28,446 bases of DNA. Source: a virus. Lineage: Duplodnaviria; Heunggongvirae; Uroviricota; Caudoviricetes. A program made the translations under genes and the position numbers. The notes below the pieces were generated by a model that had not been told where the DNA came from, ran no database searches, and saw only the letters and a program-made list of their open reading frames with translations. Position 1 is the first letter of the stretch. Every line of letters begins with the position of its first letter. Shown here in pieces: positions 23,797 through 24,434 of the stretch. The stretch lies in IMG/VR virus record IMGVR_UViG_2622736468_000007; one strand, given 5' to 3'.

Positions 23797-24176
23797 CTCT
23801 ATTCCCTTACATTTCAGGTTTCGGCTCAGGGATCGGTGCTGGTCTCTGATTTACCGGAACATGAAATTTTTCATTGCTATCTACGTACATATTTCCTTCC
23901 TACCTGTTGTTGGGATATCCAGATTATACCGAATCCTTGTTGTTGGGGAATAACCAGGTCCACCTCGCCTGATGTGGCTAAAAGCAGGCACATAACAGCT
24001 AAGTATTTTCAACCAGAGAGAATCCTTAGCGTTGTGGTGAATGCGGCTCAGCGCACGCGGGTTAAGGTTGAGGCTGACAGTCGACCTTCTGTGGATACCC
24101 ACCCGTCTGGTGTACAACCTTCGCCAGGCACCGGGAGGCACCCGGCACCACAACTTTATGCTGTGTGTAGTCTTGG

Positions 24177-24222
24177 CGGTACCAGCTTGTACCCTTGCTT
24201 CCGGCTGGTACCGTCCTTTTTA
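24177..24222 (+). terminator. terminator-like hairpin inside GC-rich non-coding region
   Basis: 10-bp perfect stem CGGTACCAGC/GCTGGTACCG, 17-nt loop, then CCTTTTT. Confidence 0.4.
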
Positions 24223-24434
24223 CAAAACAGAGAAGAGCATCATCGGACGACGGGCTCATAACCCAATCCATCCGGGCGGCTGCCACCGCAGGTGTTCTTC
24301 TCTGTTTTGTGGAGAAACTAACCGCCCCTGCGGGGCATTTATTGAAACGTAATTGACTCAATAATCGCCGGATGGAGAGGGCTTCCTTTTACCAAAATTC
24401 AGCGCGGTGCAGCGCATTTAAAGTGGAGAACGAA

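Follow-up and report, generated by a model that had tools for sequence, protein, structure and literature searches.

The early-left operon of an e14/SfV/ST64B-type prophage: its structured leader RNA, and the DicF-type small RNA with an RprA seed that this leader probably carries

The viral record IMGVR_UViG_2622736468_000007 (28,446 nucleotides (nt), analysed at its full length and called the window below) is an Escherichia coli prophage of the e14/SfV/CPS-53 type, whose early-left leader was typed as e14/SfV/ST64B lambdoid. Our subject is a 639-nt gap in it, with a two-transmembrane-segment (2-TM) open reading frame (ORF) on the minus strand (23317-23796) on one side and yfdR on the plus strand on the other; the ORF list and the PGAP annotation of a homolog agree with the initial annotation of this DNA that it is a divergent gap between a 2-TM gene and an HD-domain gene. 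It was found that the stretch is non-coding and that in such a lambdoid prophage it forms the leader, a structured RNA, of the early-left (PL) operon. We consider it probable, as an explanation of the whole, that this leader carries a trans-acting small RNA (sRNA) of the DicF type, equipped with the seed of the host sRNA RprA.

The seed, UGCUGUGUGUAGUCUU (24159-24174, plus strand), is predicted to be single-stranded and matches RprA (...ACAACGAAUUGCUGUGUGUAGUCUUUGCCC...; sequences printed in PMC5606850 and PMC7311995) in 16/16 nt, at RprA nt ~62-77. In RprA this conserved 3' region (nt 60-77) stands directly 5' of the terminator, just as the 16-mer stands directly before the terminator T1, which begins at 24175. 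Within the processed form RprA60-105 (elsewhere given as the last 47 nt) the 16-mer makes up the core. This form was called highly conserved and is sufficient for the repression of csgD; the pairing of the RprA GCUG with CAGC of csgD (-90..-87) was proven by compensatory mutation, and mutation of GCUG also relieves the repression of ydaM/dgcM (Mika et al., PMC3465796). At the validated RprA site in the csgD 5' untranslated region (5'UTR; -110..-85) the duplex energy calculated by RNAduplex was -25.7 kcal/mol for the phage seed and -25.4 kcal/mol for RprA. Shuffled seeds gave -16.4 ± 2.7 kcal/mol on csgD, and only 2 of 500 were as strong as the phage seed.

The constancy of the seed was followed in an IMG/VR scan with a 17-mer, which returned more than 120 contigs. 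In 54/56 unique variants from these contigs a hairpin and a U-run come after the seed, the hairpins have at least 10 unrelated stem sequences, and the upstream domains and downstream modules differ too, thus the seed is fixed while its surroundings change. Of 5426 complete E. coli genomes, 1793 contain a match to the segment 24140-24226, which covers the end of the upstream domain, the seed and T1. In a set with one genome per species the exact 21-mer of seed plus GGCGG was found in 20 stretches, of which 17 stand for as many species in 12 genera of Enterobacterales (Escherichia, Citrobacter, Enterobacter, Klebsiella, Raoultella, Erwinia, Mixta, Buttiauxella, Izhakiella, Scandinavium, Superficieibacter and Pseudocitrobacter); three stretches are from Escherichia coli, and one, possibly a contaminant, is in an assembly with the label Chryseobacterium.

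The local alignment of the element with RprA spans RprA nt ~61-86 and does not extend to full length with the 5' hairpin and the rpoS-pairing region. In some phage variants, nevertheless, the similarity reaches upstream of the 16-mer (CCUGAGUGA..ACAACGA.AUUGCUGUGUGUAGU; local score 44 versus 16.2 ± 2.6 in shuffles), and RprA nt ~42-77 can be aligned with the 3' end of a Qin-type domain and the seed in two of the loci that we fetched (L166, minus strand, around 6173; L003, 3470-3500). This upstream similarity suggests common descent, and on the sequence comparison RprA and the prophage modules may share ancestry.

The terminator T1 (24175-24221, plus strand) is an intrinsic terminator with a 13-bp stem (24175-24187 / 24203-24215) followed by UUUUU, and its folding energy is -23 kcal/mol. 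The 10-bp perfect inverted repeat with a T-run of the initial annotation was recovered here (CGGTACCAGC at 24177-24186, GCTGGTACCG at 24204-24213, then TTTTT at 24217-24221). The 5' arm of T1, UUGGCGGUACCAG, is the arm of DicF (UUGGCGGUAUCAG), and the Rfam DicF model (RF00039) gave a partial match at 24162-24216 (19.4 bits, E = 0.19). Like DicF, the element occupies a repressor-controlled early-left position in a lambdoid prophage and has a terminator with the UUGGCGGUAYCAG arm at its 3' end; the ftsZ-complementary seed of DicF, UUUCUGGUGACG, is absent and UGCUGUGUGUAGUCUU stands in its place.

A scan anchored on the T1 arm revealed three seeds next to this common terminator: that of DicF (UUUCUGGUGACGUU), an RybB-like one (CAACAGCCACUGCUUU) and the RprA-like one. 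The segment GCCACUGCUUU inside CAACAGCCACUGCUUU equals the first 11 nt of RybB, its known target-recognition end. The RybB-like allele CAACAGCCACUGCUUUGGCGG precedes the shared terminator in L003 (3462-3550), in L007 and in the H1, Stx2c, cdtI and mEp460 phages, and it is present in 814-1365 of the 5426 E. coli genomes. When the H1/mEp460/cdtI/Stx2c relatives are compared with the window, the homology breaks exactly at the boundary of seed and terminator (24173). In the Qin prophage of K-12, a P1-closed domain homologous to the H1-type one stands before DicF, and after DicF the dicB leader contains an STnc100-type domain; related dicBF operons have the RprA-seed version in the dicF slot, in 18 unique contexts. 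With its exchanged seeds, domains and dicF-slot occupants the locus is a mosaic of interchangeable modules.

The structured-RNA reading that the initial annotation had offered is supported by compensatory changes, since in the alignments of homologs the STnc100-like domain, T1 and the hairpin H2 all covary. The predicted fold of 23955-24345 on the plus strand has an energy of -164 kcal/mol (z = -5.5; z = -3.6 on the minus strand). It begins with a conserved block of small hairpins, CCACCUCGCCUGAUGUGGCUAAAAGCAGGCACAUAACA (23958-24000, plus strand; z = -3.9), kept in K-12 e14, SfV, phiES15, Kp4866-6 and sal3. This is followed by an STnc100-like multi-helix junction domain (24001-24158, plus strand), which consists of P1 (24032-24039 / 24146-24153), Pa (about 24042-24059), variable arms and Pz (CCGGGAGGCACCCGG, 24131-24145). 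The Rfam scan gave nothing in the region at gathering thresholds; at E <= 10 it did give the sub-threshold matches of STnc100 and DicF, the former (RF02076) with 41.1 bits and E = 2.6e-7, model positions 1-206 being aligned to 24001-24224 on the plus strand. The relatives scored 35-40.6 bits.

The architecture of the STnc100 junction, namely a UGGUG/CACCA closing helix, a 5' hairpin and the CCGGGAGGCACCCGG hairpin, was found in the element, and the domain folded by itself gave the same junction. The 19 sequences in its alignment come from three contexts: copies of the window type, Qin-type prophages (from the dicB 5'UTR), and the canonical STnc100 that stands downstream of stx. Here 99.4% of the cells are paired and 8 pairs show compensatory change, versus pairing of at most 51% in slid controls; there are 55 double-change cells versus 19.6 ± 3.2 in shuffles, a number that was reached in 0 of 500. 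In K-12 Qin (L135, 2948-3092, the dicF-dicB interval) an STnc100-type domain, GGUGAAUGCGGCUGAGCGCACGCGG ... CACCUGGAGGCACCAGG, fills the dicB 5'UTR and, compared with the copy in the window, has compensatory changes. Downstream of T1, H2 (24222-24310, plus strand) is a long hairpin closing a three-way junction, with an outer stem of 18-20 bp and the invariant core GACGGGCUCAUAACCCAAUCC. Its fold has z = -4.9, and in the alignment of 26 sequences 96.5% of the cells are paired, with 9 compensatory pairs and 39 double-change cells versus 10.2 ± 2.4. Lying upstream of the first gene, H2 may be a site for RNase III or for the control of translation.

The position of the element is constant. It lies downstream of the repressor gene, from which a variable accessory gene often separates it, and upstream of and co-oriented with the early-left genes, and this was seen in E. 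coli genomes, in SfV, SfII, SfIV, ST64B, 118970_sal3, mEp460, cdtI and the Stx2c phages, and in phiES15, phiNP and Kp4866-6. The genes downstream of it are yfdP-yfdQ-yfdR ... xis-int, with kil-gam in phiES15. In the window the candidate PL promoter (22949-22976, plus strand; TTGACA-16-CATAAT) scored 11/12 in the promoter scan, and it is the sole sigma-70-like plus-strand site that the consensus scan found within 22900-24500. It directly follows the terminator (22921-22940) of the repressor gene ymfK and is overlapped by an operator-like ATGTAC-N7-ATACAT, a similar ATGTAC-N7-GTACAT being found in the cI/cro (ymfK-cro) intergenic region. The K-12 counterpart of the stretch, ymfH (L002, 3576-3887), was grouped with intE, xisE and ymfT in the 'YmfT' co-expression module of e14 (PMC12133099), which fits control by PL.

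The start of the putative PL transcript is structured as well. At 22989-23059 (plus strand) a conserved RNA of ~70 nt, CGAACAGGCAGGACGCCCACGAAGUAGCCGCC-hairpin-GAUGAUUCG, was recognized, and 49-52 unique variants of it stand at a distance of 7-12 nt after PL-type promoters that belong to many immunity types; it is also present in L006, L010, L017-L019 and about 50 other loci. It has no Rfam match. Its helices covary (96.3% of cells paired, 31 double-change cells versus 8.6 ± 2.3 in shuffles), and we regard it as a candidate processive-antitermination or leader RNA. Next comes a hairpin (23066-23085) with an exact boxA (CGCUCUUUAACAA; boxA GCTCTTTAACAA at 23087-23098, plus strand), in the hairpin-then-boxA order of the rrn leaders. 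The boxA agrees fully with the consensus GCUCUUUAACAA on the transcribed strand and is its sole exact copy in the window. The exact motif was found in 32 of 277 fetched loci. In six loci that were compared (L017, L029, L047, L059, L061, L089) boxA is always on the strand of the seed; it is upstream of the sRNA seed in five of the six and directly after T1 in L089, L059 having both. A boxA directly 3' of T1 was seen in L059, L089 and L120.

From these elements we infer the following course for transcription start, processing, Hfq dependence, trans repression and antitermination. Inactivation of the LexA-like repressor YmfK would release transcription from PL (22949-22976), and the transcript would cross the PL-proximal RNA and boxA, run antisense through the accessory gene and enter the element. 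Most PL transcripts might stop at T1, as judged by the homology with DicF, which occupies the corresponding position in Qin-type prophages and has the T1 arm in common. Trimming by the enzymes RNase III and RNase E could then yield species of ~200 nt and ~65 nt (about 24155-24221). A candidate RNase E site between AC and UUU (24154/24155), read from the sequence, resembles RN/WUU and would fit the preference of the enzyme, and the ~65-nt product would have a free seed. With Hfq this sRNA might pair with the targets of RprA60-105, such as site I of csgD and dgcM/ydaM, and CsgD and DgcM would be lowered during prophage activity; by such pairing the sRNA would mimic processed RprA during prophage derepression. 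Some polymerases, aided by boxA and the leader antitermination signals, might pass T1, and yfdR through xis-int would be expressed. The curli matrix hinders the access of phages, and we speculate that a shut-off of curli could aid the spread of the released virions.

Several points weigh against this explanation. PL starts ~1.2 kb upstream of the element, and an antisense gene with its own terminator hairpin intervenes. The DicF and STnc100 scores stay under the gathering thresholds (19.4 versus 48 bits and 41.1 versus 47 bits, respectively) and do not confer membership in either family, and no Rfam RprA (RF00034) match was obtained at E <= 10. The 16-mer could be conserved for the binding of a protein (Hfq, RNase E) and not for target pairing, or its identity with RprA could come from common descent, the targets not being shared. 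It is by analogy with DicF that processing and trans action are argued. The source of DicF is the dicBp polycistron, which is cut by RNase III (190 nt) and RNase E (53 nt); DicF ends at the terminator, has no internal promoter by primer extension, and is a proven trans-acting sRNA (bioRxiv 10.1101/2023.04.14.536235).

The first alternative is that the stretch is a purely cis-acting leader or attenuator, in which the structures and T1 would do no more than gate the early-left operon at the levels of transcription and translation, through termination versus antitermination and through RNase III control of the ribosome-binding site of the first gene, and whose 16-mer binds a factor such as Hfq, RNase E or Nus/Rho. 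The location of the element always between PL and the first early gene and on the same strand, boxA and the conserved PL-proximal RNA upstream of it, the H2 that abuts the region of the yfdP ribosome-binding site in relatives, and the STnc100-type domains that occur also in the dicB 5'UTR would all suit such a leader. It leaves unexplained, however, that the alleles adjacent to T1 equal the seeds of trans-acting RNAs (RprA in 16/16 nt, RybB in 11/11 nt at its 5' seed, and DicF) and that one segment stays fixed amid changing terminator stems and flanking domains. Furthermore no complement of the 16-mer was found within the window, either for a cis antiterminator pairing or for any other cis partner, and the homologous DicF acts in trans. 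We hold this alternative to be unlikely.

It is distinctly improbable that the element is an independent sRNA gene with its own promoter, from which a ~220-nt primary transcript of the STnc100 family (24001-24224) would be made in the lysogen. The end-to-end alignment of the STnc100 model (1-206) and the conserved block 23958-24000 directly upstream would agree with this, and the STnc100 and EcOnc27 copies downstream of stx2 were reported as Hfq-bound sRNAs (PMC12711010). The consensus scan, on the other hand, found no sigma-70-like plus-strand promoter at 22977-24500, the upstream block contains no -10/-35 hexamers conserved across the relatives, and the leaders of the H1/mEp460 type run continuously from PL. 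The finding that the homologous DicF is without an internal promoter argues in the same direction.

In K-12 the region is annotated as protein-coding. The initial annotation had described four overlapping ORFs, open on both strands, as products of a GC-rich, stop-poor stretch and not as genes, and this description stands. The ORFs (141, 90, 103 and 99 amino acids (aa)) overlap over 23836-24361; the GC content is 0.50-0.55 versus 0.40-0.43 (about 0.41) in the flanks and reaches 0.556 in the core 23960-24335; and there are 46 stop trinucleotides versus 54 ± 4.9 in shuffles. Open stretches of at least 90 codons in 4/6 frames of the gap were equalled by only 5 of 2000 dinucleotide-preserving shuffles. 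Neither the four ORFs nor K-12 YmfH matched any family in Pfam and NCBIfam scans, and no frame is conserved on either strand.

Among 24 distinct homologs the variable columns are distributed over the codon positions as 29/31/29, and the indels are of 1, 1, 7 and 20 nt, which shift the frame. The window ORF is interrupted at codon 7 in ST64B and sal3. The K-12 counterpart is 89% identical as DNA and annotated as 'putative protein YmfH', yet YmfH and the window ORF have only 20/34 residues in common; likewise in ST64B the protein identity (53%) is below the DNA identity (77.6%). By tblastn all four ORFs are equally 'conserved', and the K-12 match is broken over three frames on either strand. Such alike scores of ORFs on both strands are expected of conserved non-coding DNA. 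Other copies are mostly 'hypothetical, frameshifted' in PGAP, a label that is relative solely to the equally doubtful YmfH ORF, and in SfV the region is not annotated as coding. Accordingly, a protein YmfH as a frame under purifying selection was rejected by the codon-position, indel and frame tests.

It is thus very hard to credit that a real protein gene is present, whether the plus-strand ymfH as in K-12 or the minus-strand ORF of phrog_3651, even though K-12 annotation lists YmfH and the ORF is unbroken in most relatives at >=95% identity; the compensatory changes keep RNA helices instead. Protein families have also been assigned, since the PHROGs scan gave phrog_3651 for the minus-strand ORF (24065-24361; 191 bits) and phrog_33599 for a part of K-12 YmfH, but these stand on opposite strands of the same non-coding DNA and are probably spurious families, that is annotation artefacts. 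One study reported that the retron-Sen2 toxin RcaT is triggered when a ymfH clone is overexpressed (bioRxiv 10.1101/2020.06.22.160242), which would speak for a protein; should ymfH be an RNA locus, RNA rather than protein may do the triggering. The ymfH papers that we found treat it as a protein ORF. The codon-position, indel, frame and family results reject equally the decayed foreign gene of the initial annotation, a barely credible alternative at any rate: the GC content above that of the flanks and the 'frameshifted' label would agree with a pseudogene remnant, but the only families that match the four ORFs are those built on the same region, no frame is kept, and strong cross-genus conservation with structural constraint is the opposite of decay.

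The remaining features of the neighbourhood concern the borders of the element. The 2-TM ORF is an accessory gene inserted antisense in the PL leader and lies outside the RNA element; what occupies this slot varies, being ymfJ/ymfI in K-12, orf33 in SfV and a different ORF in ETEC4068. At the other border H2 is followed (24311-24343, plus strand) by the conserved GGAGAAACUAAC and then by a small GC hairpin with AUUUAUU. This is the second hairpin followed by ATTTATT of the initial annotation (GCCCCTGCGGGGC at 24324-24336; whole feature 24324-24343), and the terminator scan recovered it. Its position is due to a deletion joint: in SfV, H1, ETEC4068 and mEp460, where yfdP-yfdQ are present, 23960-24335 resembles the DNA upstream of yfdP, and 24324-24500 resembles the DNA just upstream of yfdR. 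The joint at 24324-24335, a 12-nt overlap (CCGCCCCTGCGG), marks the loss of yfdP-yfdQ and the fusion of the H2 region to the region upstream of yfdR. Consequently yfdR, a gene for an HD-domain 5'-deoxynucleotidase (24436-24971, plus strand; from the ORF list and the PGAP annotation of a 98%-identical locus), is the first early-left gene still left in the window prophage.

Some observations were made elsewhere. C4 antisense RNA and isrK gave Rfam matches above gathering on the minus strand of L005 (226-414), L006 (409-597) and L007 (324-512), inside the 'immunity region / transcriptional regulator' ORF of SfV, ST64B and mEp460, and none in the window. The gathering-level Rfam matches elsewhere in the window, all on the minus strand, are at 1336-1534, 6327-6443, 11977-12407 and 16200-16639, and comprise IS009, the ALIL pseudoknot (an insertion-sequence frameshift signal) and two cspA-type thermoregulator leaders. 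Two T-arm-like motifs, CUGGUUCGAUUCCAG and GUCCGUUCAAUUCGGAC, occur in the PL leaders of 118970_sal3, Kp4866-6 and phiNP (L011, about 2390-2470; L009; L010). A tRNA or tmRNA was considered because of such T-arm-like GGTTCGATTCC motifs in these leaders, but ARAGORN calls none. A complete tRNA-like sequence stands after T1 in L060.

It is quite possible, and we propose it tentatively, that the temperate phages of Enterobacterales possess in their early-left leader a 'seed cassette' sRNA locus, in which a structured domain and a common terminator flank an exchangeable seed, with alleles that carry the RprA 3', the RybB 5' or the DicF seed, and that K-12 ymfH is this RNA. If so, a derepressed prophage would gain command of the envelope and biofilm regulons of its host and would, for example, turn curli off through csgD/dgcM. 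A defined RNA locus would replace the K-12 y-gene ymfH and also the hypothetical or 'frameshifted' ORFs that were assigned to this DNA in about a third of E. coli genomes and in many phages, and DicF would grow from a cryptic-prophage oddity to a widespread, seed-swapping family of phage sRNAs, although an earlier study had found no relatives of DicF in phage genomes (PMC5069750). This would be a case of a virus that copies the target-recognition sequence of host regulators (RprA, RybB), and prophage induction would be tied to the curli/biofilm and envelope regulons. It also offers a concrete hypothesis for the origin of the core sRNA RprA, which may be a domesticated, internally deleted phage module, or the seed of which may have been captured by phages. 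H2 and the PL-proximal RNA with boxA are two further conserved RNAs and candidates for RNA-based control of phage early transcription. No paper was found in the literature that prints the phage seed and T1 sequences or describes a prophage sRNA with an RprA or RybB seed, the supplementary sRNA catalogues (EcOnc, RIL-seq) being outside this search, so that an uninterpreted listing there is possible. None of DicF, RprA and RybB appears in the Pas/STnc100 survey.

Compared with known systems, the leader resembles HK022 put, lambda nut and the rrn boxA leaders in having a structured RNA right after PL and a boxA ahead of the terminators that precede the early genes, which suggests an RNA- or Nus-factor-based read-through. 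It differs from HK022 putL: the covariance model R1 of the PL-proximal RNA reached at most 9.7 bits in HK022 20000-30000 and never matched at putL, where by eye only short motifs are alike, and homology to put was rejected. As for lambda, no N-like gene or lambda-type boxB hairpin was noticed in the leader, neither having been searched for. With STnc100/PasD the element shares P1 (UGGUG/CACCA), the 5' hairpin, the CCGGGAGGCACCCGG hairpin and the invariant GGUGAAU and GGAGGCACC. Canonical STnc100 stands in the late region, downstream of stx and upstream of nanS-p, with a different 3' tail, whereas the window copy, below the gathering score, is fused to the RprA-seed/T1 module.

The likeness to RprA lies in the identical 16 nt 5' of the terminator, which cover the region sufficient for csgD repression together with the proven GCUG, and in the equivalent predicted csgD duplex. 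The element has neither the 5' hairpin nor the rpoS-pairing region (nt ~33-62) of RprA, and its terminator is another one; RprA is under an Rcs-dependent promoter, whereas the element is prophage-borne and under PL/repressor control. From DicF of K-12 Qin the element differs in its seed (UUUCUGGUGACGUU there, UGCUGUGUGUAGUCUU here), so that pairing with ftsZ, xylR and pykA is not expected, and also in its upstream domain (STnc100-type versus Qin-type) and in what follows downstream (H2 versus the dicB leader). Both have the early-left operon downstream of a lambdoid repressor gene, a GUUGUGG../..CNNCAAC-closed domain, a short single-stranded seed, and a terminator whose arm is UUGGCGGUAYCAG and which has a U-run. 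The element shares its ancestry with DicF and by this analogy would work as DicF does.

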